Virus record (IMG/VR): IMGVR_UViG_3300025270_000009
Location: 37,853-101,852 of that record
Source of the DNA: a virus
Taxonomy: Duplodnaviria; Caudoviricetes
Length of the DNA stretch: 64,000 nucleotides
Strand: one strand, 5' to 3'
The notes beneath the pieces were generated by a model, which was given only the letters and a program-made list of their open reading frames with translations, ran no database searches and was not told where the DNA came from. Of this stretch, positions 20,277 to 63,114 are shown in pieces (within the stretch, counting starts at the first letter, position 1; every line of letters starts with the position of its first letter). The translations under genes were made by a program, and so were the position numbers.

Positions 20277-20430
20277 AGTTCAACAACATGACGACCTGTT
20301 GAGCCATTTGAATTCTCCACAATTCAGACGTATTACCAAGTCCTTTTGGTTAATTTTAAATCAGAGCCTTGCTTTGTGCACCGCGCACACTAGCTGAATG
20401 AAGCCCCTTTCGCCATGAGGGGCTTTTTTT
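20277..20430 (+). ncRNA. candidate multi-hairpin antisense sRNA (sRNA-1)
   Basis: Promoter, four small hairpins (three with anti-RBS-like loops), CCUUGCUU..GCUGAAUG boxes, terminator agcccc..ggggcttttttt. Confidence 0.7.
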
Positions 20431-20501
20431 ATTGCTGTCTATTGACCCCCTATCTATTTCATTTAGCATTGTCCGTGAATTCACAGAAACGGACTAACTG
20501 T

Positions 20502-20816
20502 ATGAAAAAACTACTATTTATTGGAACATTAACCCTGACACTGGCCGCTTGTGCAACTGGTCCACGACCAATGATGGCCAATGGTGAACGCTGCAAAGAA
20601 GACTACTACTCTCCGACCGGCGTACTCATGACCTGCGAACGTCAAAAGCGACAGGCCTCGATTGAAGCCAGTGAGAAGCTCAACCGTGAGCTCATTGAGT
20701 TTGCGAGACAACAAGTGCGAGAGACTAACGAACGAACAGGGTCCAGCTCTCGCGAGTGTGATGAGATTATTATTTCAAGTAGCGGTGAAGAGCTCTGCGT
20801 TATAAAGCAACGCTAG
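20502..20816 (+). CDS. lipoprotein
   Basis: MKKLLFIGTLTLTLAAC lipobox; true start 20502. Confidence 0.75.
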   Translation: MKKLLFIGTLTLTLAACATGPRPMMANGERCKEDYYSPTGVLMTCERQKRQASIEASEKLNRELIEFARQQVRETNERTGSSSRECDEIIISSSGEELCVIKQR

Positions 20817-21258
20817 TGAGTATGTAGGGGCTTTGCATAGTGGTGTGAACGTTTTTGCTTATTGAGAAGGCAACGGCCGATGTGTAAAGCTCCACAAAAT
20901 CCTGCTCAGACGTTGCGGCATCCTGAATAAACCCGACTATCATCTGCGCGACATCAAAGCTATCCCCTGGGAAGTTCAAGCACTCCCCTATTTTCTTGAA
21001 CGTCAGCTCCGCATGAGGCCCCTCAAACTGATGAAACTCAGAATGAAAGCCGGTGGTCTTGACGTGCAGCTGATAGGACAGCTCATCTTTCTCGATACCG
21101 CTAGCTTTGTTCATTTCTTTTATGAGCGGCAGCATGACTAATGCAGCCCGGTCATTACCGCTGAACGGATAGTCCTTGCTCTTGCTAACATAGCTGTTCA
21201 TAGCTGCTACGCCAATTGCCGATGGGTGTGTCATGTTGACGGCGACTTCTGGTGTCAT
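20800..21258 (-). CDS. hypothetical protein
   Basis: 152 aa ORF with AGGAG RBS. Confidence 0.7.
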   Translation of the reverse strand: MTPEVAVNMTHPSAIGVAAMNSYVSKSKDYPFSGNDRAALVMLPLIKEMNKASGIEKDELSYQLHVKTTGFHSEFHQFEGPHAELTFKKIGECLNFPGDSFDVAQMIVGFIQDAATSEQDFVELYTSAVAFSISKNVHTTMQSPYILTSVAL

Positions 21259-21690
21259 TTCACAATTACTCCTTCTGTCCTGTTGAGGCGAACTATATAA
21301 GAACGAGTTTTCAAATAAAACCCCTTGTTTTTTCTTTTAGAGCTTCAAAACCACGAATTTGCGCATTTTGTTGATAGATAACTGTCAATTTTCGGAATCT
21401 AAACCATTGATGGTAAAGGTGTTTTTAATTATTTCTGGAAAAGCGGCAATTTCTTGCCGAATGGGTATTTTTTAATCTGTTCGGGCTGTAACAAAATGTG
21501 ACAGTGCGAATTTTTGTTATCCGTACACGCCTAACGTTTTAACAATTATGCTCTATAAGTATTACTCCTATCATATCTACGTCTGTCTATAGGGATGAGT
21601 TGCAGCGAATTATCACACGGTTATTACCTAACATTTGTATATTGTGCATTTCTTTGTTTTTTAAGCGTCTTTTGGTGATTTCGGGTTAAA

Positions 21691-22540: not shown

Positions 22541-23218
22541 TTACTTGATATTGAATGCGGCTTTAAGCGTATTAAGCTTTTTAGTGTCCGCTGTCTCAGT
22601 CTCTAAAATACCGCCCCGACCGATCCAGTTGCCGAGCCCGATAAAAGCAAGTGACTTTAAAAACTCACGGCTTTGTGTCGCTGTCTTGTTGTCAATATGC
22701 TTTTGCAGCTTATCGACCGTGATCGCTTTCTTGTCGAAATTCTCTAAACAAAAACGGATCGCTTTTTCAAAGTTCGACAATTGCGGGTTGTATGTTTGCC
22801 CGTTCGCTTGTCGGGTTGTGTTCGCTTGATGTTTCGCTTTTTTCAGTGCGTTTTCTACGGTTTCACCGTGAAGAATGAAACATAAAGCGCTCATTTTTCC
22901 GTAGTTGTTGCGCTTTGCTTGCTCTGGATTTTTAGCGTGTTGTAATACGTCCGCTACTTTACCGGCAAAAGTGTAGTAGTTGTGTTGAGTAGCGGCTCGC
23001 TGTATAGCGTCAAAGTCGGCAGCGCTTTTGTCGGTTTCACTGATTTTTTGCGCTAGAGCTTCACGCTGCTTTGCTTGCTCTGTTGCAAACTCTGCAAAGC
23101 TCGGCTTTGTCTCTTCTGCTTTTTTCGCTGTCTGTTTGCGAGTAGCGGTTTTTTTCGCTGCTGCTTTTTTAGCGGTTTCTTTTGCTTGAGTTGCTTTAGT
23201 GTTTTTACGTTCTGACAT
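22541..23218 (-). CDS. hypothetical protein with K/A-rich N-terminus (putative pre-early DNA-binding protein)
   Basis: 225 aa; histone-like N-terminus; own operator-controlled promoter. Confidence 0.75.
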   Translation of the reverse strand: MSERKNTKATQAKETAKKAAAKKTATRKQTAKKAEETKPSFAEFATEQAKQREALAQKISETDKSAADFDAIQRAATQHNYYTFAGKVADVLQHAKNPEQAKRNNYGKMSALCFILHGETVENALKKAKHQANTTRQANGQTYNPQLSNFEKAIRFCLENFDKKAITVDKLQKHIDNKTATQSREFLKSLAFIGLGNWIGRGGILETETADTKKLNTLKAAFNIK

Positions 23219-23291
23219 AATAATTACTCTCTAAGTTTGATTGATTTTAAGCTGTATCGGCTCGGCTCTTTGTGCCGTGTCGATGATTCTT

Positions 23292-23319: not shown

Positions 23320-23539
23320 GTGCTTTTTATAGTTTTTTTTAATAAATTTGATTGTTTGATTACTTTTTAATCATTAGTATGTTTTTTAGTCATTCAGACA
23401 ATAAATATAAAGTTTTTGATTTTTTTCTATTGTATTTCAGCTAAAGCCGTGATAGTAACGCACGCACGTTAAATAAAAGTGCGAATCCTCGATGAGAACA
23501 CTCCTTATCCTCAACCACAGCCGTCACTTCTCTATACAG

Positions 23540-23810
23540 AATTCCAAGGACAAGCCCTCTCCCCTATGCTAATACAGCCTTTCCCTAACCCTGGCACAGC
23601 TCTCCCTGGCCATTCCTGTTGTCACAGCGCCAAGGTAACCAAGGCTGTTTTCTACAAATCCAAGGAAGCTCAGGTTTGCCCACGCTAACGCAGCCTTTCC
23701 CAAGTTTTACCAGGTCAGGCACTATATAGACCAAGGCAACCTTGGAGCCGGTGTGTGCTTACCAGTGGTCGGTCTATATCCCTACGCTAACGCAGCCATT
23801 CTTAAAATTT
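23540..23810. repeat. CCAAGG / CCTAYGCTAACGCAGCC motif cluster
   Basis: Motif copies at 23563, 23679 and 23781; ccaaggcaaccttgg at 23731. Confidence 0.75.
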
Positions 23811-23830
23811 GAGAGGATTGCCTGAAAAGG

Positions 23831-24026
23831 CGTGGCCGGCCAATGATAACGAAGATAACCAAAAGGACCGGCCGGCCACGATTGCCCGAAGGCAATTAGG
23901 GTTGGAGCGCTACTGAGTAAACTGAAGTAACAAAGAGAGAATGAAACCTCAGTAACGCCCCAAAAGTGGCGAGAAGGTGTAGACTGGACAGTAGTGCAAT
24001 GTGTGGGAAACTGTCTACACCTTCTC
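23831..24026 (-). ncRNA. structured RNA: three long-loop hairpins plus cUUCGg hairpin
   Basis: 11-, 16- and 14-bp stems with 28-30-nt loops; G-U wobbles and UUCG tetraloop only on minus strand. Confidence 0.7.
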
Positions 24027-24043
24027 TGAAAGAGTGACCACCA

Positions 24044-24292
24044 TCAGGCGGTCAAACGGGAATCTTGGGTAATTTTCAGCAAACCCTCATCCCTTTCAGC
24101 AGCAAGCATGAAATCAATAGCTTCAACCAGGGCCATGCTGAAAGTAAAGTAATGCTGCTCAGTTACTTTACGCTCCTGGTTAAGCGACGTTCTTAGCCTG
24201 AATTTATCCCCGACCTGTTTGATATGAGCAACCGCCTTATCACTGATATGCAGTTGCTCGCTCTCATCGGGGGTCTGGTAGACCCGCTTCAT
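24044..24292 (-). CDS. hypothetical protein
   Basis: 82 aa, GGAG RBS. Confidence 0.7.
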   Translation of the reverse strand: MKRVYQTPDESEQLHISDKAVAHIKQVGDKFRLRTSLNQERKVTEQHYFTFSMALVEAIDFMLAAERDEGLLKITQDSRLTA

Positions 24293-24293
24293 A

Positions 24294-24611
24294 TTAAGCG
24301 ACTCCGCTCACCACAGCCTGATAGCCTGTGAGCTTAGCGTTCTTTAAGCGCTCTTTTTGTGACACGAATGTACGGCTCTTAGTCAGCCCAAACAAACGTC
24401 TCTCACGCTCTGACAAGACACTGAACGGCTTAAGTCCTTCTTCTTGAAGAAACGCATAGCGTTGCTTATCCAACGTGAATGTCGCGCCATGCGAAAAGCC
24501 GTCTGACTTTAGTTGTTGTATCTGTTGAGCCGGTGTCATTGAAAGAAGAGCTTCCATGCTGACTGACAATTCCTTTTTGCTTTCACCGTTGCCAAAGATT
24601 GCTTGTTTCAT
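24294..24611 (-). CDS. hypothetical protein
   Basis: 105 aa, preceded by conserved leader. Confidence 0.75.
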   Translation of the reverse strand: MKQAIFGNGESKKELSVSMEALLSMTPAQQIQQLKSDGFSHGATFTLDKQRYAFLQEEGLKPFSVLSERERRLFGLTKSRTFVSQKERLKNAKLTGYQAVVSGVA

Positions 24612-24627
24612 TGTAAAATTCCTTCTG

Positions 24628-24715
24628 TTGCTTGCTTGTTTGCTGAATGTTGTTGAGCGATTTGCTGTCTCGCTTCAACGGTTTCTATATTACAGTGCTG
24701 AGATAGGGGAGCAAG
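24628..24715 (-). promoter_or_regulatory. leader/operator/promoter unit
   Basis: ttgcttgtttgctgaatg; operator 24687-24706. Confidence 0.75.
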
Positions 24716-24734
24716 CGAAGTTAAGAACTTAAAT

Positions 24735-24850
24735 CCCTACGCTTTCTAGCTCTACTCCAAGGACGCCTTGGTTTATACAGAACCAGTGGACGACAGGCAT
24801 TCCTACGCTAACGCAGCCAGTCCTAAAACCTGCCTTGGCAACCTTGAACC
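24735..24850. repeat. second CCAAGG-N3-CCTTGG / CCTACGCTAACGCAGCC cluster
   Basis: Copies at 24757 and 24802. Confidence 0.75.
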
Positions 24851-24916
24851 GGGTGAGAAACAAAAAAGGGCGACCGAAGCCGCCCAAACTTGCAGTGACA
24901 AGTTAAAAGACTCTGA

Positions 24917-25165
24917 TTAACGCTCGACCTCTGCGTAAACGTCCGAATCAACGTCCTGGCCAATTTCTTTCACAATATCGGTAGGAATAGGCATCAGAAA
25001 CTGAATTTTTCGTGAAATTCCGTCTTCAAACAAAACGTTTAAATGCTCTCCACCAACATATTTAATCTCCACCGGCTCCTGAGTAAACTGCTCTAACATT
25101 CGTCCGTCCACCAGATACGGTGTGGTGGTTTTCTTCATCACGTTTTTAAGGTGTTGTAGTTTCAT
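24917..25165 (-). CDS. hypothetical protein
   Basis: 82 aa; GAGG RBS; followed by UUCG terminator 24862-24885. Confidence 0.7.
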   Translation of the reverse strand: MKLQHLKNVMKKTTTPYLVDGRMLEQFTQEPVEIKYVGGEHLNVLFEDGISRKIQFLMPIPTDIVKEIGQDVDSDVYAEVER

Positions 25166-25172
25166 TCTTACC

Positions 25173-25505
25173 TCACAGTGTTATTTCTAAAAGTTCAAAT
25201 TCGAAGCTGTTGGGTGAAATGTGGTATTCAAAACCGAAGCTATCATCCAGTGCGTTTATCTCTAATGGCTTGAACACCTCCAAAGCGTTACGAGAAAACA
25301 TTGCCTTGATGTAACCCTTAAGCGTCAGCCCTGCGTCACCCGCTTCTTCACGCCAGTCTTTCTCCAGGTTTGGAGTGTGCTTCATAAGCCTTACCATAAG
25401 CTCGGGCAACGTATCTCTGTCATCGAGATCGGCAGAAAAGGTGTGCTTGTTCTCCGCATTTTCAATGTCTATCAAAACCAGCGTCTGTTGTGATTTAAGG
25501 TTCAT
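25173..25505 (-). CDS. hypothetical protein
   Basis: 110 aa; preceded by leader and operator 25540-25559. Confidence 0.75.
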   Translation of the reverse strand: MNLKSQQTLVLIDIENAENKHTFSADLDDRDTLPELMVRLMKHTPNLEKDWREEAGDAGLTLKGYIKAMFSRNALEVFKPLEINALDDSFGFEYHISPNSFEFELLEITL

Positions 25506-25691
25506 TACTCGTTCTCTCTTGCTTGCTGAATGTGAGTGTATATTACAACACTGAAATAGGCACTCAACAGCTTATCATAAACTATTTACCTCACAGCCGG
25601 CTTGGAATAGGAATAATTGTTTAGTCATTCGCTTGAACGCCTTTGTGTCAGTGTCATAATACACACTCATTCATAAAGAGAGAGAAAAACA

Positions 25692-25943
25692 ATGTCTGAA
25701 AAAGAGCCGAATTTCCTACGTGAAATCATGCAAGTGTTTATCCCGTCTACTCACAAATTTTATGAATTGAACGAGTTTGAGGACGGGAGCTTTAAAATTA
25801 CTGAGCAAACGATTGATGAAAAAATTGTAACAATTGAAGAAGCCGACCTTGTTGACTTCTACGGCGGCAAAACAATCAACTCTTACGAGAGTAAAGAAGA
25901 AGCTGTTGAGCAATTTAAGGAGCTGACATTCTCACAAATCTAA
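25692..25943 (+). CDS. hypothetical acidic protein
   Basis: 83 aa; TTGAAC..CATAAT promoter, AGAGAG RBS, UUCG terminator 25946-25972. Confidence 0.75.
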   Translation: MSEKEPNFLREIMQVFIPSTHKFYELNEFEDGSFKITEQTIDEKIVTIEEADLVDFYGGKTINSYESKEEAVEQFKELTFSQI

Positions 25944-26039
25944 GCAAGCGGCCTTCGGGCCGTTTCTTTTTTGTCAGCCGGCACCAAGGAAGCCTTGGTA
26001 TGAGTGGATTAAACAAAAAAGCGGCCGAAGCCGCCTTTC

Positions 26040-26261
26040 TCAGTCCGTTAATACATAGCAGTGCCAATAATCTCTCAAACTCACCTCTGCAATGCTCTGA
26101 TAACTTCTCATCATGGAAAAGTAATCATCCAGGTTATAAATAACGGCTTCAGGATGCTCAACCTCAACCGGCTCTTGGGTTAAGAAACTGGTTCCATCAA
26201 GCTCTTCTGCCTGTTCAAGCGTGTATTCGCTCTTAGGGAGTAATACAATTGTTGTTGCCAT
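26040..26261 (-). CDS. hypothetical protein
   Basis: 73 aa, last gene of operon, terminator 26015-26035. Confidence 0.65.
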   Translation of the reverse strand: MATTIVLLPKSEYTLEQAEELDGTSFLTQEPVEVEHPEAVIYNLDDYFSMMRSYQSIAEVSLRDYWHCYVLTD

Positions 26262-26263
26262 AA

Positions 26264-26515
26264 CTAATCCTTACCGATATTGACGTAAGTGACCCAAACC
26301 GTATCCAGGTCAATCGCCTCATCGTTACAGTCGTCCATAAACTGCGACAGAGTCATCACCTGAATATCGCAACACAGCGTATTACCTTCTTTGTTCACCG
26401 TCTCAGCAACCGCCTGAATGCTCTCAAACGGTCTGTCCTGGATTAGTTCGGCCACAGCCCGACCATCATTCACCCGAGCGGTTGGAATCAGTACTATATG
26501 CTTCTCAGACATCAC
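26264..26515 (-). CDS. hypothetical protein
   Basis: 83 aa, coupled; similar length and C-terminal W-x-x-YV to neighbour 26040..26261. Confidence 0.65.
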   Translation of the reverse strand: MMSEKHIVLIPTARVNDGRAVAELIQDRPFESIQAVAETVNKEGNTLCCDIQVMTLSQFMDDCNDEAIDLDTVWVTYVNIGKD

Positions 26516-26774
26516 GCTTCTCCTCTCTGGCCTTCACCCAACCGTAATGGTCGGCTATCGCCCTTAAAATGTTCAAAATCTCTTCTTCGCCTTTGAAAAA
26601 TCCAAAGATCGAATTGCCATGCTTAGATTGAATGTACCCCTCTAAAGCATTCACCCGATAAAAGCTGCCCTCCGGGTATTCCTCAGACAAAAACCGCCAA
26701 AAATCTGTCTCTACCATCGGAATGTTAGACGGATTGCCAGCCTTCATTTCTTCAAGAATTTTCTCTCTGTCCAT
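26505..26774 (-). CDS. hypothetical protein
   Basis: 89 aa, coupled. Confidence 0.65.
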   Translation of the reverse strand: MDREKILEEMKAGNPSNIPMVETDFWRFLSEEYPEGSFYRVNALEGYIQSKHGNSIFGFFKGEEEILNILRAIADHYGWVKAREEKRDV

Positions 26775-26777
26775 AGC

Positions 26778-27020
26778 CTACACCGCTGATAGTTCGTAAA
26801 TAACATGACCCTCACGCTCAGCCCAATCGACTAAGTGACGAGTCACCTCTGTCCAGTTCTTAGGAGCCGGTTTATCGCTTGGCCAACCGTCTCCTGCCCA
26901 AATCTCTTCCAGCTCTTCACCGTTATTCCAGTCACCGGCGATGAGAACGTTCGAGCTCTCATCCCAGTCACCAAAACAACTGATCCGGTGGCCACGATAG
27001 GTAATGACTGTTTTACTCAT
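26778..27020 (-). CDS. hypothetical protein
   Basis: 80 aa, GGAGG RBS. Confidence 0.7.
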   Translation of the reverse strand: MSKTVITYRGHRISCFGDWDESSNVLIAGDWNNGEELEEIWAGDGWPSDKPAPKNWTEVTRHLVDWAEREGHVIYELSAV

Positions 27021-27283
27021 GACGCCTCCGGATCGAAGTTAATGAACAGGTCGGCCACACTCTCGATAGCCACCCACATTTCATCAACGGTAAAGTCCTG
27101 GTAAGACTCAGCCGGTACCAAGTCACCGAAGTCGTTTGAACCATCGGGCATTTCATAAAGGGTCTTCAATGCCTGGTCAGCGGTTACCTCGTGCTCGGCA
27201 GGATTGTCACTGTCAGACACATTGTTGAAGAATAAAAGGAGTGAGCGCTTGTTGTAGGCTTCACGTATTTCATTGGCTGTCAT
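27017..27283 (-). CDS. hypothetical acidic protein
   Basis: Start reassigned to MTANE (27283), downstream of leader and operator 27319-27338. Confidence 0.7.
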   Translation of the reverse strand: MTANEIREAYNKRSLLLFFNNVSDSDNPAEHEVTADQALKTLYEMPDGSNDFGDLVPAESYQDFTVDEMWVAIESVADLFINFDPEAS

Positions 27284-27449
27284 AATAGACTCCACTTGCT
27301 GTTGCTGAATGTGCTTATATATTACATTGCTGAGATAGGCACGCAATAGCGACCGTTTATTCATATTCCTGCATAACTATCCACTATTTAAAACAAACCC
27401 TCGGGGATTTTTCTCGAAAACTGCATACCTACCCACACAAAGTGAATAA

Positions 27450-27780
27450 AACCCAAGGATTCCACGCATAAATACCCTATACAAACCCAAACCAACCAAG
27501 GACGCCTTGGATTAAACCCGACCTGCAGGTAACAGCCGGCCAAGGACTCTACATTCCTATGCTTTCATAGCCTTTCCCAAATTCTGACAGCCAAGGCTCT
27601 CTACAAACCTATGCTAACGCAACCAGTCCTGAATTCTGCTATAACTCCCTCACTCAATGTCGTTCCAAGAGCTTCACAGGCACGAGAACACGTCTAAAAG
27701 GGAAAACCTAAGCAACCATACCACCCAAGGGCTTACAATCGCTTACAGAGCGTGTCAGGCTTCCTTGGTTCAATCCCACA
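27450..27780. repeat. third CCAAGG / CCTATGCTAACGCA cluster
   Basis: ccaaggacgccttgg at 27496; motif copies at 27556 and 27608. Confidence 0.7.
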
Positions 27781-27844
27781 AGGGCTGGCAGTTATGTTTA
27801 TCACCGACTGTTGCTCACCACCGGCTGCGTGTTACTATAAACAC

Positions 27845-27920
27845 CGTCATGAAGAGCTGATTACTCTTTTTGATTATTTTAAGCTGTATTAGCCCTGGCC
27901 TCACGGTCGGGGCTTTTTTA
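27845..27920 (+). ncRNA. candidate antisense sRNA (sRNA-3) to leader of gene 22541..23218
   Basis: TTGCTC..TACTAT promoter; 8+7+14-nt identity blocks to 23223-23257; G-U-containing terminator plus U6. Confidence 0.72.
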
Positions 27921-28741
27921 TGGGTATAAGAAAAGACAGTTGGTAAATTTTTTTTGGAAATTTTGCGAGCGCCTGGTTTCCGGCTGTTTGTGCGTGTCCT
28001 GACTGGCCTGGGATTTTTTGGGTATAAAAGTTTGAGGGTCGCGCCCAATTTTTTTGTGAGGGAGCGCGTTCAACTAAACTCGTGCCTACTCCAATCACTC
28101 ACTATCTGCCTACTCTCTCAATCTCCTCTCTATACACTCGTGCCTACTCACATCATTCTCAATCGCCTACTTTCTCATTCAACAATCAATACACTCCTAT
28201 TCTACCTACTCACGCTCTCTCCCTTCATTCTCCCAATGTACACGTTATGCCTAATCACTCTCTCTATACACGTAAGCTCTCTTCTCTCCATAAGCATGAG
28301 CTCTCCCTGTACCTGTGTGAACGTTTGTTCTTCTCCGTGTGTTTCTTTGTTTTGTTTTATCGTTAGCTCCTTTACTCCTTATGATTGTTTGTTCATCCCT
28401 CCTAATGTTCGTTGTCCGTGTGAAATGTTTTTACTTTTATCGTTAGTTCCTGTCGGTCAGAACCGTTCTCCGGCTGTTACCTTTGATTGTTTTGTATTAT
28501 TGATAGCCGAGAGTTTTTGAAATTGTTTGAGGCATTTGTGTTTTGTGTAGCCTGGGTGTTTGTTGGACTTGTTTTGTGAACGGGTTATTCCTGTGTTTTG
28601 TATAGTGAGCCGGGTGTTTGCTTGTGTTTGTGAAGGGAATGCTGTGCTGAGCTTATGAGACGCTTATTTGCTTGGTTTTGTTTTGTGTTGTGAGTCAGAA
28701 TGAGAAAAGCCGACTCTAGGCCGGCTCTGTTAGGCTCTCAA

Positions 28742-31761: not shown

Positions 31762-31840
31762 TACCTTGCTTTTTGCTGAATGTATTTCAATTATGACATA
31801 CGAAAATAGGCGCTCAAGAGCGCCCTTAATTTAATTGCCT
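31762..31840 (-). promoter_or_regulatory. cassette boundary unit
   Basis: Leader, operator 31782-31801, hairpin over -35, ttaattgcc. Confidence 0.85.
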
Positions 31841-32157
31841 TCGACAACATGAGTAACAGGCTTGCCAAGCATACTGATGGTTTTCAGTATCTCACCTGGT
31901 GTTGCGTACTGAAGCTGCTCAGACCGCCCCTCTCTAACGTATCGATAAACAGACATCGTCCGCCAATCCGGATGCTTTCTGTCACTGCAAAGCTTCCATT
32001 TGGCACTATTGTTTTCACGCCTGAACACATCTAGCCAAGCCGAGTTGTGACCGTTTATGTTGTAACAGGTTGAAGCTCTTATTTTCACCTGAGAGCCGTC
32101 TTCTCGGGTTATTAAAGCTTCAACCTCGCTTACCAACTTTTCTTGATCTTCACTCAT
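31831..32157 (-). CDS. hypothetical protein
   Basis: 108 aa. Confidence 0.65.
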   Translation of the reverse strand: MSEDQEKLVSEVEALITREDGSQVKIRASTCYNINGHNSAWLDVFRRENNSAKWKLCSDRKHPDWRTMSVYRYVREGRSEQLQYATPGEILKTISMLGKPVTHVVEGN

Positions 32158-33607: not shown

Positions 33608-33695
33608 TTTAAACCTCGCTTGCTTGCTGAATGTATCTCAATTCTGACATATCGAGATAGGCACACAAGAGCTAATAAGCAATTAATTGCCTACA

Positions 33696-34214: not shown

Positions 34215-34304
34215 CCTTAGCCTCGCTATTTGCTGAATGATAATAAAAAAGCTTGAGTGCTTATTCTGACATTGCGAATAAGGCACTCAAGCTTTCGGGT
34301 TTAA

Positions 34305-34715: not shown

Positions 34716-34766
34716 AAATGTTACCTATTTGTTGCTAGCTGAATAATCTAGGCCGTAGCCTATTTT

Positions 34767-36581: not shown

Positions 36582-36666
36582 TTCCTGCTTTTTTTGCTGA
36601 ATGTATTTCAATTTTTACATACCGTAGAAGGCATACAAGCGGCGCCTCAATAAAGACGCCACTGAC

Positions 36667-45856: not shown

Positions 45857-45953
45857 GTTGTTACCTTGCTTGTTGCTGAATGTATTTCAATTTTGACATA
45901 CAAAAAGAGGCGGTCAATGCCGCCTCTTTAAATAATTGCCAAGTTATTATTTT

Positions 45954-46909: not shown

Positions 46910-47029
46910 TTCATACTTACCTCGCTGAATGTTAATGATTAAAAATAATCGTTGAAAAGAGCTTATACTTTGACGCTTGCCTGAGTATATGTCAACACTG
47001 AAATACTAATAAGCTCAAAAGTTAATTCC

Positions 47030-48364: not shown

Positions 48365-48464
48365 GATACACCTCTTGCTTTTGCTGAATGTTTGTATTTC
48401 GATGCTGATATACTAAACGATCCGAGTAGGCAATCAAGCGGTTTTTGATTTTGTTTTTTCCAAT

Positions 48465-48553
48465 AAAAAACCGCCTTCCCAAGCAAAAGAAAGGCGGTCT
48501 ACATTCAGCAATAGCAAGCAAGGTTTTACAAGAAGTGCAAAATCACGCTTACT
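48465..48553 (-). ncRNA. candidate master antisense sRNA (sRNA-4) complementary to conserved early leader
   Basis: TTGTCG-17-TGTAAT promoter; 25-nt seed at 48524-48500; terminator ACCGCCUU..AAGGCGGU plus U-tract. Confidence 0.75.
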
Positions 48554-48617
48554 TTGCTCATTACAGCATAAACCCTGGGCTGCGACAAGTTTTAATGCTT
48601 AATGCTGAATATCGGCT

Positions 48618-49058
48618 CTATTCCTTCTTAGCCTTTCGCTCTTTGTAAGACCGATAAAGCTCTTTTGCCTTTTCCGTTCCGCCCTGAAGCAATGGCTTGC
48701 TAAAGTAAAAAGGAACAATCCAGACCAGAATCGAGTTAATGTTTTTATCCACGATCTCCTGCAAGTCCTTCACAAAGTCAGCGTCAAATACAGCACCACC
48801 GGCTAAGAACAATACACAGACCAACCAAGCAAAAATCACAGCCACTACAATCGCTCGCCTTGAGACGTTCTGCCCCTCAGTGTTCTTCATGTACTTACCC
48901 AGGCTGTCGATAAACTGCCGGTTCGCCTCTACCCGCTCTTGATCGCCAAAATGAAGCTTGTCCATTCCTGATGAAACAGTGTCAAAGACGCCCTTCGTTG
49001 ACTCAGGTGTTCCGAACATAGTACCGAATACGTGTTTAATGCCATTCCACAAACTCAT
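48618..49058 (-). CDS. holin-like membrane protein
   Basis: Amphipathic N-terminus, 2 TM segments, basic C-terminus; operator 49102-49121 upstream. Confidence 0.55.
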   Translation of the reverse strand: MSLWNGIKHVFGTMFGTPESTKGVFDTVSSGMDKLHFGDQERVEANRQFIDSLGKYMKNTEGQNVSRRAIVVAVIFAWLVCVLFLAGGAVFDADFVKDLQEIVDKNINSILVWIVPFYFSKPLLQGGTEKAKELYRSYKERKAKKE

Positions 49059-49121
49059 AAAAAAATACCCCTGTTAATGAATAACAGAGGCATTTTATCA
49101 ACTATCTCAGTATTGAGATAC

Positions 49122-49364
49122 CTAAGTGTAACGAGAAATCTTCTGGTGCGACTTCAATACCAACTCCCAGGCGGTCATTAAAATCAACCAAATGCCGCAA
49201 GCAATCGAGAACAAGCCGAACAGAAGCGAATATCTGGCCAATAGCTCAAAAACATAACCATACCCGCCAAACGCTTCTTCGTTCCACTGGCCAAACACGC
49301 CCAAAGGTATGCTTGCCAGTGTAAACATGACACCAAATAACGTGAGCTTTATTGCGTCTCGCAT
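49122..49364 (-). CDS. membrane protein
   Basis: 2 hydrophobic segments. Confidence 0.55.
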   Translation of the reverse strand: MRDAIKLTLFGVMFTLASIPLGVFGQWNEEAFGGYGYVFELLARYSLLFGLFSIACGIWLILMTAWELVLKSHQKISRYT

Positions 49365-49927
49365 GAAAGTTCCTCCAAGTCTAACTTAAAATAGCCTTTC
49401 TTAAGGCCGTAAATGAGAGCGTCCATCATTTTCTCGGTATCGTACCAAGCTCGGTGAGCGCTAACCTCATCAAAATCTATCCGACACGCCCGACAAAGCT
49501 CAGCCAGTTTTGGCACCTTGCCGTTAGGAGTAGCCCATCTGCCGTTTTGCATCGTACAGAAGATCTCAATATCCGGCATTTCGAGTTTCACTTTGTTCAT
49601 CATGTGGTACATGAACGGCGCATCGAAATTGGCATTGTGAGCCACAAAAACGTCACAACCGTTAATTATTGACTTCACTTTGGGCGCAATCTCATGCCAC
49701 TCCGGAGCACCCTTTACCATGTCCGGTGTGATACCTGTTATCTCCTGAACCTTTTGCGGTATGCTGCGCTTCGGATCAACAAGTGTCGACCACTTCTTTC
49801 GGTCAACGGCCTCCATTGTCTCGGTGTCGAGTTTGACAATGCTTATGGCAATCTCAGTTACCATGTGACCGTCATCTGCATCGAAACCTGTGGTCTCTAA
49901 ATCCGTTCCGAATAATTTAAGTATCAT
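49349..49927 (-). CDS. DEDDh 3'-5' exonuclease (DnaQ-like)
   Basis: DLETTG, AHNANFD, HRAWYD. Confidence 0.92.
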   Translation of the reverse strand: MILKLFGTDLETTGFDADDGHMVTEIAISIVKLDTETMEAVDRKKWSTLVDPKRSIPQKVQEITGITPDMVKGAPEWHEIAPKVKSIINGCDVFVAHNANFDAPFMYHMMNKVKLEMPDIEIFCTMQNGRWATPNGKVPKLAELCRACRIDFDEVSAHRAWYDTEKMMDALIYGLKKGYFKLDLEELSCETQ

Positions 49928-50363
49928 ATTTTTCCCTCAACTTTTTGACCACGTTTTTAAAGCGCTTACAGGCGTCACTGGAATCGCTTATGTTGATTGA
50001 CTTCACCGGCTCCGAGATCAAAATGCGCATTTCGCTCGGAATGTAGTTTATGTGGTATGGGCCAGCCCTAACGGTGTCCGTTGATTGACCCACAACCTCT
50101 TTATTAAACTCGTGAAGCACGTTAATCAAAAAGTCGTCCTTGTCGTATCCGTTCAATACCGAATACAGTGCGTGAATAGCTTCATAACCGGCGTTGGTGG
50201 ACATATTGCCAGCCTCAACAGCCAGGCAAATGTTCTCAATCTGTCCGGTTATCTTTCTCTGAATGCCGTCCTGAAACTGTTCGAAGTCTTCTTCAGCGAT
50301 TTTAAGGCGCTCTCTCAACCTCTCTATTTCAGTGATTGACTCCAGTTCTTTCATGTCACTCAT
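49917..50363 (-). CDS. hypothetical protein
   Basis: 148 aa; leader 50371-50391; operator 50402-50421. Confidence 0.7.
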   Translation of the reverse strand: MSDMKELESITEIERLRERLKIAEEDFEQFQDGIQRKITGQIENICLAVEAGNMSTNAGYEAIHALYSVLNGYDKDDFLINVLHEFNKEVVGQSTDTVRAGPYHINYIPSEMRILISEPVKSINISDSSDACKRFKNVVKKLREKYDT

Positions 50364-50424
50364 TGCTCTTACCTTGCTTGCTATTGCTGAACGACTTAAT
50401 ACTATCTCAGCAATGAAATACTAA

Positions 50425-53886: not shown

Positions 53887-53970
53887 GTTGATTACCTTGC
53901 TCGTTGCTGAATGTATTTCAATTCTGACATACTGAACAAGGCAATCAACTAGACCTAAAACAAAAACCCC

Positions 53971-60065: not shown

Positions 60066-61990
60066 TACTCCACCAATGTTGCTTGACCGTCACGTTTGAC
60101 GACCGTTACTTGTTGACGAATCCAGTCTCTAAGCTCGTTATGACTGATTACCAGTACTGTTCCGTGTGTACGTGCACGTTCATCAAGTACATTCATCAAT
60201 CGCTCAAGGCCGGCTGTATCGAGTGCATGGTCTATCTCATCACCGATATACAGATCGATGTTTTTAACAGCTCGGGTAGACACCAGATCTTGCAATGCCA
60301 AGTTTGTTGACAAGCGAACCTTGCGCTTCTCGCCGCCTGACAGCGCCTTGAATGAGTTGCCGCCTGTCTGAGATTCCACATCAATCGTGAACTTCTCAGT
60401 CAGCTCGCCGTTGGCCTTTTTGCTTAGTGTTTGCCATGTCGCCGTAATGTTGCCGTCTGACAGCGCTGACAAGTACTCCGCCGTTCTCTGGTTAAGATAA
60501 GGCGTTACCGTGTCGAGAATATGAGCACGAACACCCGAATTCCCGTAAACTTCTGCAACTTCCTTCATCACCTCAACAGTCTCAGCTTGCTCTTCAAGAT
60601 CACTTATGACCTTTTCATAGCTCTTCTTCTGGTCAGCCAAACGCTTCTCAAGACGCTCAATACTCTGCTTGTGAGGGTTAGACTCATCACTTTTGGCGTG
60701 CTCGAGCTGTATCTTTTTAGAGTCAATTGACTCCTTTTCGCGCTTAAGGTTATCAACCGCTCGTTGATATTCGTTTCGCTGATTGAAAAGCGCCACGATC
60801 TCAGAATCATCGAACTCCGGCGCCTCTCTTCTGGCCACATTCAATTCTGTTTGAGCATCGTCAAGCTGCTTCTCAAGGTCGGCAAGCTTTGGCTTCTCCT
60901 GCTTTATCTCGGCCATTAACTCGTCAAGGCGCTTCTTGCGGACTTCAATGACATCAGCCATGTCATGCTCCGAGTAAGGCTTGCCACACTCGCGACAATC
61001 AGTGCCAATTAGCGACTCACTGTTGTCTATTTCACCCTTGAGCTTTCTCGCTTCATTGGCCAACTGACTCAGCTCAGCCCGAACCTTGCTGTGCTCAGCC
61101 TGGACTGCAGAAAGGTTTGCCTGTTTCTGAGCCTCATAAGCTTTGTGCGCTGCTTTGGCTTCTGTTCGAGACTCTTCAATTTCCTTTATCTTGTCTTCAA
61201 TTGAATCGTCTTTCTTACCCTTCAGCTCGGCTGCTTTTTCTCTAACAGAAGCGGCCTTTTCTTCAATTTCTCGCTCAAGGTCTGCCACAACCTGCTTTTG
61301 GCGCTCTTCGTGCTCTTTAGCCTGAGACTTGGCTTGCTCCAAATCTTCTTTTGTTGTCTGCAAGCTGCGAGCTTCAAACTCCTTGCTTTGAGAAAGTGTT
61401 TCGTAATCCCGCTTTGCATCCTTCAGCTTGTCTTTGGCCAACTTATAGGCGTTTTGCAGTCGAGTGATTCCGGCTGCTTCTTCAACAATGGTCTTTAGCT
61501 CTTTATCGGTCATGGCGGGTAAGTCCACCTGAGCCTCTTGAGCGCTATACACGGACGCATTGAAGATTTCTTGACTGCAACCTAAGACTTCTACAATTTT
61601 CGCCTGAGTGAGCTTGTCTGTGCCGCCTGTGAGCGATTCTTCTTTGCCGTCAGCAATACGAACAAGCTGAACCGAATTTTTGAACTCTTTGTGCTTGCGA
61701 TACCGGGTTACCACGTACTTGTCGTCACCGTCGATGATCTCTACCGACACCGAGCAATTTTTCTTGGCTTTTCGGTTAACAATGTCGGTAGGTGAAATGC
61801 CCCGAGCTGTCACGCCAAACAGACACCAACTTATTGCATCAGCAATAGTTGATTTACCGGCTCCGTTTGAGTTCTGACTTTCGTCATGCTCGTTCTCGCC
61901 CTGTATCAACAGAAGCCCTCGTTGCTGAAGGTTAATCGATGCTTCACCGATTGCCATGAAGTTAATGATATTTACGTCGCCAAAGTGCAT
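60065..61990 (-). CDS. SbcC/Rad50-like ATPase
   Basis: NGAGKST, CRECG zinc hook, LSGGE, DE, SH. Confidence 0.93.
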   Translation of the reverse strand: MHFGDVNIINFMAIGEASINLQQRGLLLIQGENEHDESQNSNGAGKSTIADAISWCLFGVTARGISPTDIVNRKAKKNCSVSVEIIDGDDKYVVTRYRKHKEFKNSVQLVRIADGKEESLTGGTDKLTQAKIVEVLGCSQEIFNASVYSAQEAQVDLPAMTDKELKTIVEEAAGITRLQNAYKLAKDKLKDAKRDYETLSQSKEFEARSLQTTKEDLEQAKSQAKEHEERQKQVVADLEREIEEKAASVREKAAELKGKKDDSIEDKIKEIEESRTEAKAAHKAYEAQKQANLSAVQAEHSKVRAELSQLANEARKLKGEIDNSESLIGTDCRECGKPYSEHDMADVIEVRKKRLDELMAEIKQEKPKLADLEKQLDDAQTELNVARREAPEFDDSEIVALFNQRNEYQRAVDNLKREKESIDSKKIQLEHAKSDESNPHKQSIERLEKRLADQKKSYEKVISDLEEQAETVEVMKEVAEVYGNSGVRAHILDTVTPYLNQRTAEYLSALSDGNITATWQTLSKKANGELTEKFTIDVESQTGGNSFKALSGGEKRKVRLSTNLALQDLVSTRAVKNIDLYIGDEIDHALDTAGLERLMNVLDERARTHGTVLVISHNELRDWIRQQVTVVKRDGQATLVE

Positions 61991-61992
61991 GA

Positions 61993-63066
61993 TTAAGCCT
62001 CCACTTCCTGCAGCACTGCCAGTGCTTCTTTCACAACACGGTTCTTGCGAATAGAATCGCGTGATTCAACATAGCTCTCAATTGAGCCCTCTAGCGTCTC
62101 TGACTTTTCAGTATCAACACTGTCCTTGCGCTCAGTGACGTTGGTCTTCGGTGTAGCAACAATTGACACACCAAGTGCGCCCCTCTCTTTCATGTCGTTT
62201 TTCAGAGAGCTTGATTCTTCAATGCTTAGCTCAGAAGCACGAACACGAACGAAATTACCGGGTACGTGGTAAACAGCGTCTTCGTAATCTTCCTCTTCGC
62301 TTATCAAGTCCATGTTCACGTCTACGAATTTAGGCGCCTGAGTTTCAAAGTGCTTGACGCTGTCACCTTCAACCAGTATGAATCCGGCTCTGGAGCTAAT
62401 ATCGCCAAAGTTCTGATGTGTTAACGCACCAACAGACACAACCGACTTGTCATCGTCTATGTCAAACACTTTGTGATTGTGGTAATGACCAAAGTAGAAG
62501 CGCTTGGCTTTATACTTCGCAAGCTCTTCGTATGAGAAGCCGTGATCGGGTATGCCGCTAATCACGCCGTTCAATTGCGCGTGCAGGTGAACATGAGCGT
62601 TTCCGTTACTATCATCCAACTGATTGCTAAGCTCTTCACGCAAGTCATCCAGGTTTGCAAACCAGGGCATTAATAGCGTTTCTTCGTCAATCCAGGTTGG
62701 TTCTGTCACAACATTGACACCGACACCCTGAAGCGCTGAACTGGCGTTAGACACCCACTCTGAGTCACGACCTTCTAAGTCATGGTTGCCGGCTATCATG
62801 TGAATGCCGTCTTCAAACTTACCTTCGTACTCTTTGTACAGGTTTAGTACCGGGTTCAAAACGCTCGGAATGATTTTTCCGCGAACATGAAAGCAATCGC
62901 CGTCATGGATAACTCGGGTAGCACCCTCTTTCAGAGCGTGCTCAAACGCTTCTCGGGTTGCCTCTATGATATGCAAAAGTCGGCTGTTAACGCCGTCCAC
63001 AGTTGTGCTGAATTGGTCGAAATTGTGATAGTGAGTGTCACTTATCAAGCAATCGAATCTGTTCAT
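61993..63066 (-). CDS. SbcD/Mre11-like nuclease
   Basis: SDTH, GD, GNHD, GHYH; leader and operator 63094-63113. Confidence 0.93.
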   Translation of the reverse strand: MNRFDCLISDTHYHNFDQFSTTVDGVNSRLLHIIEATREAFEHALKEGATRVIHDGDCFHVRGKIIPSVLNPVLNLYKEYEGKFEDGIHMIAGNHDLEGRDSEWVSNASSALQGVGVNVVTEPTWIDEETLLMPWFANLDDLREELSNQLDDSNGNAHVHLHAQLNGVISGIPDHGFSYEELAKYKAKRFYFGHYHNHKVFDIDDDKSVVSVGALTHQNFGDISSRAGFILVEGDSVKHFETQAPKFVDVNMDLISEEEDYEDAVYHVPGNFVRVRASELSIEESSSLKNDMKERGALGVSIVATPKTNVTERKDSVDTEKSETLEGSIESYVESRDSIRKNRVVKEALAVLQEVEA

Positions 63067-63114
63067 CTTTTAATCTCGCTTGTCTTGCTGAATGTATTTC
63101 AATACTTACATAAA

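Follow-up and report, generated by a model that had tools for sequence, protein, structure and literature searches.

Why should so many genes of an uncultured phage-plasmid begin with the same untranslated leader, and does its genome (101,852 bp, ~102 kb) encode small RNAs directed against that leader? A preliminary description of the window analysed here, a stretch of 64,000 nucleotides of this genome, proposed a network of trans-acting antisense RNAs aimed at a leader shared by about 19 minus-strand genes and layered on a repressor regulon. Our reading of the sequence is narrower: it points to one plausible multi-target anti-leader RNA (sRNA-4) and one plausible gene-specific antisense RNA (sRNA-3), not to a proven network.

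The shared leader is part of a promoter cassette

Leader-like sequence followed by a Shine-Dalgarno (SD) site and ATG is present at all 19 of the positions proposed, so that the claim of a shared leader holds. The sequence TACATTCAGCAA, with up to two mismatches, has 23 matches in the window compared with 7.6 expected, a count matched by none of 100 shuffles, and a count of the core CATTCAGCA over all 101,852 bp of the genome gives 25 minus-strand copies and a single plus-strand one. Three of the 19 positions, 34738 (hns), 46924 and 50386, carry diverged versions of the leader. The leader was also said to be copied with each gene cassette, and it does belong to a longer repeat of ~100 nt, for which nhmmer returned 10 strong and 7 weaker copies. 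This cassette comprises a terminator-like hairpin, an extended -10 sigma70 promoter, an 18-bp palindromic operator and the 5' UTR, which starts with (A)CATTCAGCAA (Table 1). Promoters of the form TTGACy-16-CAAAAT with TG, together with overlapping terminator hairpins, were called in the cassettes by a promoter and terminator scan, and in at least 10 of them the hairpin overlaps the -35. In both promoter classes, A and B, CATTCAGCAA starts exactly 8 nt past the -10 hexamer, and it is thus with the transcript start, and not with the operator, that the leader keeps register. Some 30 palindromes TATYTCA-N4-TGARATA (0-1 mismatch) are found genome-wide at or near promoter -10 regions, including one in every class A cassette, in agreement with the proposed repressor regulon.

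Conservation of the leader may have other causes, for instance the context of the start site or a C/A-rich enhancer of translation. An Rfam search of the window gave no family matches. The cassettes are recombination-prone repeats at which assemblies break, and the genes between them are mosaic when compared with those of a relative, genome C.

Table 1. Positions of the predicted RNAs, their targets, and the cassettes and leaders in the window
Feature	Position	Strand	Remarks
Unit-1, promoter-terminator unit without ORF	20277-20433	+	Split anti-leader: CCUUGCUU 20367-20374, CUAGCUGAAU 20390-20399
Operator palindrome over unit-1 promoter	20251-20268	+	1 mismatch
225-aa gene, Lys/Ala-rich N-terminus	22541-23218	-	
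5' UTR of 225-aa gene, candidate sRNA-3 target	23219-23264	-	14-, 7- and 8-nt blocks reaching SD and AUG
Hairpin array	23831-24026	-	Structure conserved
sRNA-3 promoter-like site TTGCTC-16-TACTAT, without operator	27811-27838	+	
sRNA-3, predicted RNA of ~77 nt	27846-27922	+	5' hairpin, A/U-rich single-stranded seed, terminator with G-U pairs
sRNA-3 seed AUUUUAAGCUGUAU	27876-27889	+	Same exact 14-mer on plus strand, 23244-23257
177-aa Lys-rich gene and XRE/HTH_3 repressor candidate (47299-47838)	47299-48364	-	Directly downstream of sRNA-4
sRNA-4, predicted RNA of ~92 nt	48462-48553	-	5' hairpin, single-stranded seed AUUGCUGAAUGUA, terminator
sRNA-4 intrinsic terminator	48468-48500	-	13 pairs and U run; one strand only
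sRNA-4 anti-leader, 24-nt leader reverse complement	48500-48523	-	Directly before terminator
sRNA-4 -10-like hexamer TGTAAT	48560-48565	-	TGc before it
sRNA-4 -35-like hexamer TTGTCG	48583-48588	-	
Operon: 148-aa gene, RNase T-like exonuclease, 80-aa gene, 146-aa gene	48618-50363	-	sRNA-4 at 3' end
Class A cassette example	45873-45929	-	Hairpin 45929-45904, TTGACC-16-TGn-CAAAAT 45917-45890, operator TATGTCAAAATTGAAATA, leader 45884-45873
Leader core	24640-24651	-	Class B promoter
Leader core	25523-25534	-	Class B
Leader core	27302-27313	-	Class B
Leader core	31773-31784	-	Class A
Leader core	33624-33635	-	Class A
Leader core	34230-34241	-	Variant
hns leader variant AUUCAGCUAG	34735-34746	-	
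Leader core	36594-36605	-	Class A
Leader core	37583-37594	-	Class A
Leader core	39877-39888	-	Class A
Leader core	40877-40888	-	Class A
Leader core	42033-42044	-	Class A
Leader core	43368-43379	-	Class A
Leader core	46922-46933	-	Diverged
Leader core	48381-48392	-	177-aa/repressor operon
Leader of 148-aa gene operon	50372-50391	-	Best sRNA-4 target, 20-21 contiguous pairs including ATAG insertion
Leader core	53904-53915	-	Class A
Leader core	63085-63096	-	Before SbcD-like gene

A candidate anti-leader RNA at the end of an operon

The unit at 48553-48465, described earlier as a promoter-to-terminator unit complementary to the common leader, carries a 24-nt reverse complement of the leader (48523-48500) followed by a 13-bp terminator, and this is the only inverted leader copy in the 102-kb genome. 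The terminator also stands as described, whereas the unit's own promoter is less secure: TGTAAT is a non-canonical -10, since position 2 is G where A is normally invariant, and a consensus promoter scan did not call it as a promoter. The predicted fold of sRNA-4 has an energy of -33.4 kcal/mol (z -4.9). When the genome was scanned for duplexes with sRNA-4, each of the 13 best non-overlapping minus-strand windows proved to be a leader; their energies run from -40.8 to -29.1 kcal/mol, and the background is -11.6 +/- 3.8 kcal/mol. The leader just downstream (48392-48370) is likewise complementary, at -29.3 kcal/mol; it precedes the operon of the repressor candidate, which matches Pfam HTH_3 (7e-12) and the PHROG transcriptional regulator and repressor families.

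The position of sRNA-4, its flanking hexamers, exposed seed and terminator are kept at 61-76% protein identity, in a comparison that comprises essentially one diverged full-length relative plus fragments. The orthologue in genome C (L024, 11165-11236) has the same architecture, and is retained there although a mazEF pair has been inserted just upstream of it. The -35-like hexamer is TTGCCG in L024 and TTGCGG in L025, at the same 17-nt distance from TGTAAT, which is invariant across three lineages. Between the orthologues TTGnnG-17-TGTAAT, seed and terminator show little or no change, in contrast to the diverged spacer and 5' body. The predicted folds agree: in both RNAs a 5' hairpin containing G-U pairs is followed by an unpaired seed and then by the terminator. 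The terminator is kept in L024 and L163; in the third lineage hexamers and terminator persist, and the assembly broke exactly at the anti-leader. An ATAG insertion is present in the window in both sRNA-4 and the leader of the 148-aa gene, and in genome C in neither, with cognate duplexes stronger than non-cognate ones. Gene conversion between repeat copies could mimic such co-variation. The operon of the 148-aa gene is syntenic with CYRAN_76-77 of the E. coli phage Cyrano, a distant relative whose own shared RBS leader differs from that of the phage-plasmid and has no inverted copy in 42 kb.

Does the anti-leader act in trans, or solely on the message that carries it? Because sRNA-4 ends the operon whose leader it matches best, a fold-back of that mRNA's 3' end onto its own leader, in the manner of fbi/tac, remains a rival. 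Alternatively, read-through transcription would mask the leader of the 177-aa gene and repressor; in either case no free small RNA would act on other early genes. Cis action is as compatible with the data as trans action, since the unit lies at an operon's 3' end and ~110 nt upstream of another leader; the match to the operon's own leader is by far the best (21/21, ATAG insertion included), the ATAG indel co-varies with that leader alone, and the unusual -10-like hexamer and the complementary downstream leader fit the same picture. We nevertheless regard an exclusively cis role as unlikely. TTGnnG-17-TGTAAT is conserved in three lineages around a variable spacer, mazEF was inserted exactly upstream of an otherwise intact block, and in both orthologues the predicted primary transcript has a paired 5' end and a free seed, the layout of a stable, stand-alone small RNA. 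Even a terminated or processed 3' fragment would be free to pair in trans through its perfect 12-nt seed matches. In genome C the complement spans only +1 to +16, short of the SD, so that a block of translation is not guaranteed; binding at the very 5' end might make the mRNAs more stable instead.

A candidate antisense RNA for a single gene

sRNA-3 is the best case among the candidate units. The proposal that the unit at 27845-27920 is complementary to the leader of the gene at 23218 is borne out by an exact 14-nt match and further blocks of 7 and 8 nt; since the same 14-mer occurs on the plus strand at 23244-23257, the seed is complementary to the minus-strand mRNA. In a genome-wide duplex scan this leader ranks first after the sRNA-3 locus itself (-35.0 kcal/mol, z -6.1). 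The predicted fold has an energy of -27 kcal/mol (z -4.5), and the terminator would work only as plus-strand RNA because it needs G-U pairs; the -35 is weak (3/6). L167 has an orthologue on its minus strand (~5138-5214), behind a promoter-like TTGCGT-17-TACTAT. Both hairpins are 100% identical between the window and genome C, and only the single-stranded seed differs, its change being matched by a complementary change in the leader of the 225-aa gene: seed and leader pair over 14 bp in the window (AUUUUAAGCUGUAU/AUACAGCUUAAAAU) and over 16 bp in genome C (UGAUUGAUUUUAGCGA/UCGCUAAAAUCAAUCA), with duplex energies of -39.6 and -36.0 kcal/mol for cognate and -23.5 and -32.0 kcal/mol for non-cognate pairs. 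For both candidate RNAs, sequence, predicted fold, conservation and co-variation of seed and target are matters of observation. The 225-aa protein has homologues at 71, 49 and 32% identity; it gave no Pfam or PHROG hit and has no recognisable Rep domain. sRNA-3 itself lies within a 1.4-kb ORF-free stretch rich in iteron-like repeats and CCAAGG palindromes, motifs that also precede the 225-aa gene. Both sRNA-3 and sRNA-4 survive amid many protein genes that are without a homologue in the readable parts of genome C.

The matching blocks might instead be DNA sites, the leader core and its copies at 48500, 27876 and 20390 being bound by a phage protein and changing together as that protein changes. 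The leader core does adjoin the operator in class A cassettes, and the repeats and palindromes around sRNA-3 recur before its target gene. We consider this highly improbable: the core keeps a constant distance from the -10 and start site but not from the operator; each copy has promoter-like hexamers on one side and a one-directional terminator on the other, placed on the strand from which antisense RNA would result; the G-U pairs of the stems exist only in the RNA of that strand; and the sRNA-3 complementarity extends in blocks over the whole 5' UTR to the AUG.

Unit-1 and the hairpin array

The remaining proposals fare less well. The unit at 20277-20430 was described as complementary to the common and hns leaders; its anti-leader is split by 16 nt (CCTTGCTT + GCTGAATG) and it has a 10-nt match to the hns leader, but common leaders are not among its top matches in a duplex scan. 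Its promoter, TTTACA-17-GATACT, was called by the promoter scan. L167 has a shorter orthologue on its minus strand (~12310-12440), and a promoter-terminator unit under operator control is thus conserved, but only a 6-8-nt anti-leader core persists and the hns match is lost. For the hairpin array the fold is upheld (z -7.3, with 8 compensatory pairs relative to L167), whereas its supposed anti-RBS loops are unsupported, since the best targets of the loops lie inside coding regions and none is an outlier.

Such cases raise the question of whether cassette recombination has simply left all the units behind, as inverted or duplicated pieces of leader that lie beside ordinary terminators and regulate nothing, with the leader kept only because the copied cassette supplies a good start site and translation enhancer. 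The recombination-prone cassettes, with their assembly breaks and mosaic gene content, the short core left in unit-1 and the targetless loops of the array are all in keeping with this. It is nonetheless a very unlikely account of the whole, given that sRNA-3 and sRNA-4 have kept their seeds and scaffolds between genomes at 61-76% protein identity, where the non-coding DNA beside them has diverged, and that the sole variable part of sRNA-3 has changed so as to compensate for a change in its target.

Only sRNA-4, and weakly unit-1, are directed at the common leader, sRNA-3 being specific to one gene, and the proposed network aimed at that leader thus shrinks to one good candidate.

A model for the two RNAs

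sRNA-4 and sRNA-3, as conserved, leader-complementary units, are probably antisense regulators. The explanation that we favour, with somewhat more confidence than doubt, is that of a distant SSU5-like phage-plasmid in which an operator and cassette regulon is joined by at least two small non-coding RNAs that pair with leaders. Most promoters would carry the palindromic 18-bp operator, to which the XRE repressor from 47299-47838 presumably binds, and copies of one cassette would drive the ~19 minus-strand genes. With the start site set by the cassette, every one of these mRNAs would open with (A)CAUUCAGCAA, then a C/A-rich stretch and then the SD. sRNA-4 would expose UUGCUGAAUGU between its 5' hairpin and strong terminator, pairing with the first 11-24 nt both of the leader of its own upstream operon (21-24 bp) and of ~17 other leaders (12 bp + 9 bp), which would keep ribosomes off or provide RNase III with a substrate. 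The target of sRNA-3, 4.6 kb distant, would be the 225-aa gene, with pairing over its 5' UTR, SD and AUG. We infer that both units are transcribed, act in trans and repress, and that sRNA-4 may provide a second, titratable layer of immunity beside the repressor; the direction of regulation and its timing, in the lysogen or on induction, are purely conjectural.

Comparison with known systems

As in the hok mRNA of plasmid R1, with its fbi/tac fold-back, the 3' end of an mRNA here complements the 5' leader of the same message, which it can close. The two ends are, however, 1.9 kb apart, and the sRNA-4 element, flanked by conserved promoter-like hexamers and a terminator, matches many other leaders as well. 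Plasmid rep genes are controlled by antisense RNAs such as CopA of R1 and RNAI of ColE2, which sRNA-3 resembles in being short, apparently operator-free and terminator-ended, and in its predicted pairing with the leader and SD of a gene near iteron-like repeats. It differs in being encoded 4.6 kb away rather than opposite its target, which lacks a recognisable Rep domain. Multi-target RNAs of the GcvB type reportedly pair with C/A-rich elements upstream of ribosome-binding sites, much as one G/U-rich region of sRNA-4 (CCUUGCUUGCU...UUGCUGAAUGU) would pair with many C/A-rich leaders, at the SD or immediately before it. The sites recognised by GcvB, a chromosomal RNA, evolved independently, whereas that of the phage-plasmid is copied as a cassette and begins with the mRNA's first nucleotide.

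The promoter-early stem-loops (PeSLs) of T4-like phages are small terminator/promoter composites that recur in front of variable early genes and mark where related phages have exchanged genes (PMC2839356, PMC4122927). The phage-plasmid shares with them hairpins overlapping the -35 in at least 10 cassettes and a gene content between cassettes that is mosaic relative to genome C; its cassette adds a repressor operator and a conserved 5' UTR, and the element that carries it is temperate and SSU5-like. We know of no antisense partner described for PeSLs.

A further parallel in design is the immI (c4) system of P1/P7, c4 being a processed 77-base RNA that lies upstream of its target sites in one transcript. 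The P1 repressor C1 has 22 operators scattered over the genome (PMC8546580), and the passage on c4 in the same source, citing Citron and Schuster 1992, describes a short trans-acting antisense RNA from its target's operon region that blocks synthesis of a regulatory protein. Both systems thus combine a phage living as a plasmid with dispersed repressor operators and an added antisense RNA, without any relation in sequence or structure between c4 and the units described here. The operator is palindromic in the phage-plasmid and asymmetric in P1, and sRNA-4, unlike c4, lies downstream of its target, may have its own promoter, and faces a target sequence copied into ~19 transcripts.

The shared leader and its promoter cassette

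The preliminary description reported that many minus-strand genes begin with the same 5' leader. This claim holds, and the repeat is larger than described. TACATTCAGCAA (≤2 mismatches) occurs in 23 copies against 7.6 expected, and over the whole genome the core CATTCAGCA has 25 matches on the minus strand and a single one on the plus strand. Alignment of the flanks extends the repeat to a cassette of about 100 nt, of which nhmmer detects 10 strong and 7 weaker copies. The 5' part of the cassette is a G+C hairpin that scores as a terminator and overlaps the −35; then comes TTGnnn-16-TGn-CAnAAT, scored as a promoter with an extended −10. TACATT was also considered as the true −10 and rejected, the −35 spacing being suited to the TGn-CAnAAT element called by the promoter scan. 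The 3' part comprises TGAAA, then TACATTCAGCAA(c)AAGCAAGG, 5-9 nt and the ATG. Genes with a second class of promoter (TGTAATATA) carry a leader identical to that of the first, class A. In both classes CATTCAGCAA starts 8 nt past the −10 hexamer, and the conserved block is thus the first 10-25 nt of the predicted transcripts. Between 31000 and 46000 of the window, most class A cassettes open with GGCAA(T/A)TAA just 5' of the terminator hairpin, and in at least one case the upstream gene takes its final two codons (Gly-Asn) and its stop from this edge.

A second dispersed element accompanies these promoters. The palindrome TATYTCA-N4-TGARATA has about 30 sites with 0-1 mismatch genome-wide, which coincide with promoter −10 regions or lie close to them. 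The class A form is TATGTCAAAATTGAAATA, spanning −10 to +1, and a site also overlies the promoter of unit-1, the promoter-terminator unit at 20 kb. The XRE HTH_3 protein encoded in the 177-aa/repressor operon is the obvious candidate to bind this operator. The arrangement, with one operator dispersed in many copies at promoters across the genome, is like the C1 regulon of P1, which has 22 C1 operators (PMC8546580).

Coordinates of the features discussed (window positions unless another record is named)
Feature	Position	Strand
Unit-1	20277-20433	+
225-aa gene (predicted target of sRNA-3)	22541-23218	-
AT-rich stretch	23330-23440	
Direct repeats	23530-23811, 24769-24832, 27548-27638	
Intergenic CCWWGG clusters	within 23544-27768	
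CCAAGG-N3-CCTTGG palindromes	23731, 24757, 25984, 27496	
Hairpin array	23831-24026	-
83-aa ORF	25692-25965	+
Promoter-like site of the 83-aa ORF	25633-25660	
Terminator of the 83-aa ORF	25946-25965	
ORF-free stretch	27365-28740	
ORF-free stretch in genome C	L167 4526-5669	
sRNA-3 (predicted RNA)	27846-27922	+
58-nt tandem repeat	28070-28196	
Cassette edge with Gly-Asn-stop	31831-31846	
177-aa/repressor operon	47299-48364	-
XRE HTH_3 protein	47299-47838	
Protein just downstream of sRNA-4	47831-48364	
sRNA-4 (predicted RNA)	48553-48462	-
Anti-leader segment of sRNA-4	48523-48500	-
148-aa gene operon	48618-50363	-
Leader of the 148-aa gene operon	50391-50372	-
mazE/pemK pair in genome C	L024 10540-11120	
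RNR large subunit with insertion, lineage A	L021 1136-4495	
Part of Escherichia phage Cyrano examined	L169 44646-86559	

The element and its relatives

An IMG/VR virus record of 101,852 bp, rated complete by CheckV, contains the window as bases 37853-101852. The element occurs in JGI metagenome 3300009603 and in the Logan runs SRR31273177, SRR5468483 and SRR25400339. Its gene content includes SbcCD, class I ribonucleotide reductase (RNR), thymidylate synthase, DHFR, MazG/dUTPase-like, RNase T-like exonuclease and helicase genes, and a ParA-like start and a DnaE-like segment were seen in the sequence contexts around leader-core matches. Gene order matches that of Escherichia phage Cyrano, with SbcCD, RNR and exonuclease syntenic, and the SbcC-like protein is ∼38-43% identical to homologues from SSU5-type phage-plasmids (Aeromonas, Acinetobacter, Escherichia) and from large Rhizobium and Pseudomonas phages. 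We read the element, from its gene content and order, as a distant uncultured SSU5-like phage-plasmid. Phage-plasmids of the SSU5 type are widespread among Enterobacterales, Aeromonas and Acinetobacter; to our knowledge hardly any work exists on how their lysis-lysogeny decision and plasmid maintenance are controlled, and we found no publication on sRNAs in them.

No DNA-level relatives were present in phage or plasmid collections. Pattern searches for the cassette and the sRNAs in viral, metagenome and species-genome collections returned chance matches only, none with both a −35-like site and a T-run, and protein-seeded locus searches of viral and species-genome collections found nothing. Relatives came solely from protein look-ups in Logan and ENA assemblies, and fall into three lineages. 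Lineage A comprises the window together with records at 99% identity, which are uninformative (L021, L164-166); B consists of the ENA contigs L025 and L163, at 79-83% amino acid identity; and C, at 61-76%, is the Logan contig SRR25400339_31008 (read as L024 and L167). The comparison of seeds with their targets draws on one diverged full-length relative, genome C.

Two side observations concern these relatives. In L021 the RNR large subunit is 1119 aa long with a LAGLIDADG (intein-like) insertion, the window copy being 730 aa. Cyrano has its own shared RBS context, AAAGGAAAAACAC-ATG, preceding many genes, together with a recurring palindrome-like ATAGGTAAnnnCTTAYCTAT near promoters; the 42 kb examined hold no inverted copy of its shared RBS leader.

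A probable anti-leader RNA element at 48.5 kb

The sole inverted copy of the leader lies within the predicted RNA sRNA-4, directly 5' of a 13-bp terminator predicted to work on a single strand only. When this anti-leader segment was scanned for duplexes genome-wide, the 13 best sites were all leaders: that of the 148-aa gene came first at −40.8 kcal/mol and the others ranged from −38 to −29, on a background of −11.6 ± 3.8 kcal/mol. Across lineages the 5' body has diverged, while TTGnnG, a 17-nt spacer of variable sequence, TGcTGTAAT, the terminator and the seed TTGCTGAATGT have been retained. Both orthologues are predicted to fold alike (z ∼−4.9 each): the RNA starts with GUAAG, which pairs with CUUGC via G-U pairs in a 5' hairpin, and a free seed and the terminator come after it. 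The seed is invariant, and it stays unpaired in either minimum-energy fold. An ATAG insertion is common to sRNA-4 and the 148-aa gene leader in the window and absent from both in genome C, and cognate duplexes are better than swapped ones. The lineage B assembly ends exactly at the anti-leader and restarts in the terminator loop. In genome C a mazEF pair is inserted just upstream, with the sRNA-4 unit intact; this mazE/pemK toxin-antitoxin pair lies between the 146-aa gene homologue and the unit, and the window site has no such pair. We judge it quite likely that the 48.5-kb unit functions, in one way or another, as an anti-leader RNA element.

Does this element act in trans or in cis? That it works in trans on many cassette leaders we rate at slightly short of an even chance. 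A role in cis only, by hok-like fold-back or by masking in read-through transcripts, we judge quite unlikely; it stays a serious rival because of three features. The −10-like hexamer, TGTAAT, carries a G at the almost invariant A position and is not called as a promoter by the consensus scan; the unit lies at the 3' end of the very operon whose leader matches best; and the leader of the 177-aa/repressor operon lies 110 nt downstream. The anti-leader and the 148-aa gene leader could form 20-21 contiguous pairs (15 in genome C), so that the 3' end of a putative operon mRNA would complement its own 5' leader, as in the fbi/tac fold-back of hok-type mRNAs. However made, a fragment ending at the sRNA-4 terminator would expose a 12-nt perfect match to every class A mRNA 5' end. 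The likelihoods given for this and the other units attach to separate, partly nested claims. A sigma54-type spacing upstream of sRNA-4, considered by eye, does not fit.

sRNA-3 and its probable target

The second predicted RNA, sRNA-3, has the promoter-like sequence TTGCTC-16-TACTAT. Its 5' hairpin is separated by a single-stranded, A/U-rich stretch from a U-tailed terminator that exists in the plus-strand RNA only, because it needs G-U pairs. Its −35 agrees with the consensus at 3/6 positions; the promoter-like hexamers are conserved, and the consensus scan calls no promoter. Its own locus apart, its best duplex genome-wide (−35.0 kcal/mol, z −6.1) is with the 5' UTR of the 225-aa gene, at a distance of 4.6 kb; the runner-up has −28.5 kcal/mol. 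The pairing blocks span from about −40 to the AUG.

In genome C both sRNA-3 hairpins are base-for-base identical, and the sole diverged segment is the seed, which neither orthologue pairs in its minimum-energy fold. In the window AUUUUAAGCUGUAU pairs with AUACAGCUUAAAAU, and in genome C UGAUUGAUUUUAGCGA pairs with UCGCUAAAAUCAAUCA, the seed being altered to fit the altered leader; at least four positions are compensatory, and swapped pairs cost 4-16 kcal/mol. The preliminary description had proposed co-variation of seed and leader as a check on its sRNA network, and for sRNA-3 the seed does track the changed leader in this one diverged full-length relative. sRNA-3 probably functions as an antisense RNA that regulates the 225-aa gene, and it is the strongest case among the units. 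The natural compensatory variation present in two genomes makes the sRNA-3/leader pair a compact test case.

The 225-aa protein belongs to no recognisable family. Iteron-like repeats and CCAAGG-N3-CCTTGG palindromes flank both its gene and sRNA-3, a context that suggests, without showing, that an antisense RNA may control a module for replication or partition here.

Several other features of this region were observed. The window has fewer CCWWGG sites than expected (21 vs 38), and 18 of the 21 fall in four intergenic clusters that include four 15-bp palindromes of the CCAAGG-N3-CCTTGG type; a CCAAGG cluster also lies upstream of the 225-aa gene homologue in the distant relative L170. These clusters may serve as a centromere, as iterons or as a set of regulator sites. 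Direct repeats 39-58 nt long have a common core CCTACGCTAACGCAGCC (5 copies), and with an AT-rich stretch upstream of the 225-aa gene they give a layout resembling a replication origin. sRNA-3 and a 58-nt tandem repeat (2.2 copies) occupy a 1.4-kb ORF-free stretch that is conserved as non-coding in genome C. The 225-aa protein has the same layout as the product of the gene directly downstream of sRNA-4: in each, an N-terminal half that is rich in Lys, Ala and Glu and resembles a histone tail precedes a small C-terminal domain, and the two may be related DNA-binding proteins. A lone plus-strand ORF of 83 aa, with a promoter-like site and a terminator, stands among the minus-strand genes.

Unit-1, the hairpin array and other searches

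Unit-1 is the only one of the three units for which the scan calls a promoter (TTTACA-17-GATACT with TG); its terminator is called too, and the terminators of all three are clear. The proposal that its RNA is aimed at the common and hns leaders fared less well than the promoter-terminator unit itself, which stands. The pairing with the hns leader, a 10-nt match in the window, was rejected as a conserved feature, the site being missing in the genome C hns leader, and the common leaders are not among the top duplexes of unit-1 in the genome-wide scan. Genome C keeps the promoter, operator and terminator around a shorter, unrelated body. The pre-terminator stretch is UAGCUGAAUGAAG in the window vs AUUGCUGAAAAAG in genome C, so that only GCUGAA is common to both, and the second half-site CCUUGCUU is absent in genome C. 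Unit-1 is probably a small transcription unit, and unlikely to be an anti-leader RNA.

The hairpin array has a fold z of −7.3 and 8 compensatory pairs relative to genome C. Its loops, previously suggested to be anti-RBS elements, differ between the two genomes and yield no outlier targets, and that role is rejected; the array is a conserved structure and is not counted in the antisense network. Rfam 15 at gathering threshold gave 0 matches over the whole window, including the P1/P7 c4 RNA family, and a tRNA scan found nothing.

Discussion

How might leader pairing act? The default reading is repression, by occlusion of the ribosome-binding region or by RNase III cleavage. Pairing may alternatively stabilise the mRNA against 5'-end-dependent decay, which is conceivable because the mRNA would be paired from its very first nucleotide and, in genome C, not as far as the SD. 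The position of the 48.5-kb unit beside the repressor gene, together with its lack of an operator, suggests that its RNA could be expressed in the plasmid state as a second layer of immunity.

The first layer would then be the repressor acting on its ∼30 operators, and the second one small RNA, encoded beside the repressor gene, reading an 'address tag' at the 5' end of ∼19 early mRNAs, where a mobile promoter cassette would have placed it. The sRNA would sequester leaky early transcripts as a group, and the lysis switch would fire only once their sum exceeded the sRNA pool. In a separate circuit, the trans-antisense sRNA-3 would set the level of the iteron-flanked 225-aa protein in a copy-number-dependent manner. 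Taken jointly, these two layers and the separate circuit form a scheme that we hold tentatively, as on balance rather doubtful. If true, a single sRNA addressing a whole early regulon through a cassette-copied leader would be a new regulatory design, in which a gene recombining into the cassette gains repressor and sRNA control together. The phage antisense RNAs that we know of (P1 c4, P4 CI, P22 sar, lambda OOP) have no more than one or two target sites apiece.

Each component is of a familiar type (phage-plasmid antisense RNAs, PeSL-like cassettes, multi-target sRNAs); a single sRNA reading a copied 5' tag would combine them in a new variant. PeSLs, described by Krisch and colleagues in T4-like phages, are composite terminator/promoter repeats preceding variable early genes (PMC2839356, PMC4122927). 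The present cassette likewise repeats a composite stem-loop terminator and early sigma70 promoter ahead of variable genes, in a genome that is SSU5-like, in contrast to the T4-like myoviruses. Many early genes have no homologue in the readable parts of genome C, gene content being mosaic, and the short-read assemblies of the relatives break at cassettes, both of which are consistent with a PeSL-type reading.

The candidate RNAs themselves were compared with the trans-encoded base-pairing sRNAs of enterobacteria. Their promoter-like hexamers are conserved, if non-canonical (sRNA-4) or weak (sRNA-3). Their seeds, single-stranded in the predicted folds, are complementary to leaders at or near the ribosome-binding site, with leaders as the top duplexes, and in the one diverged full-length relative seed and target are conserved together or co-vary.
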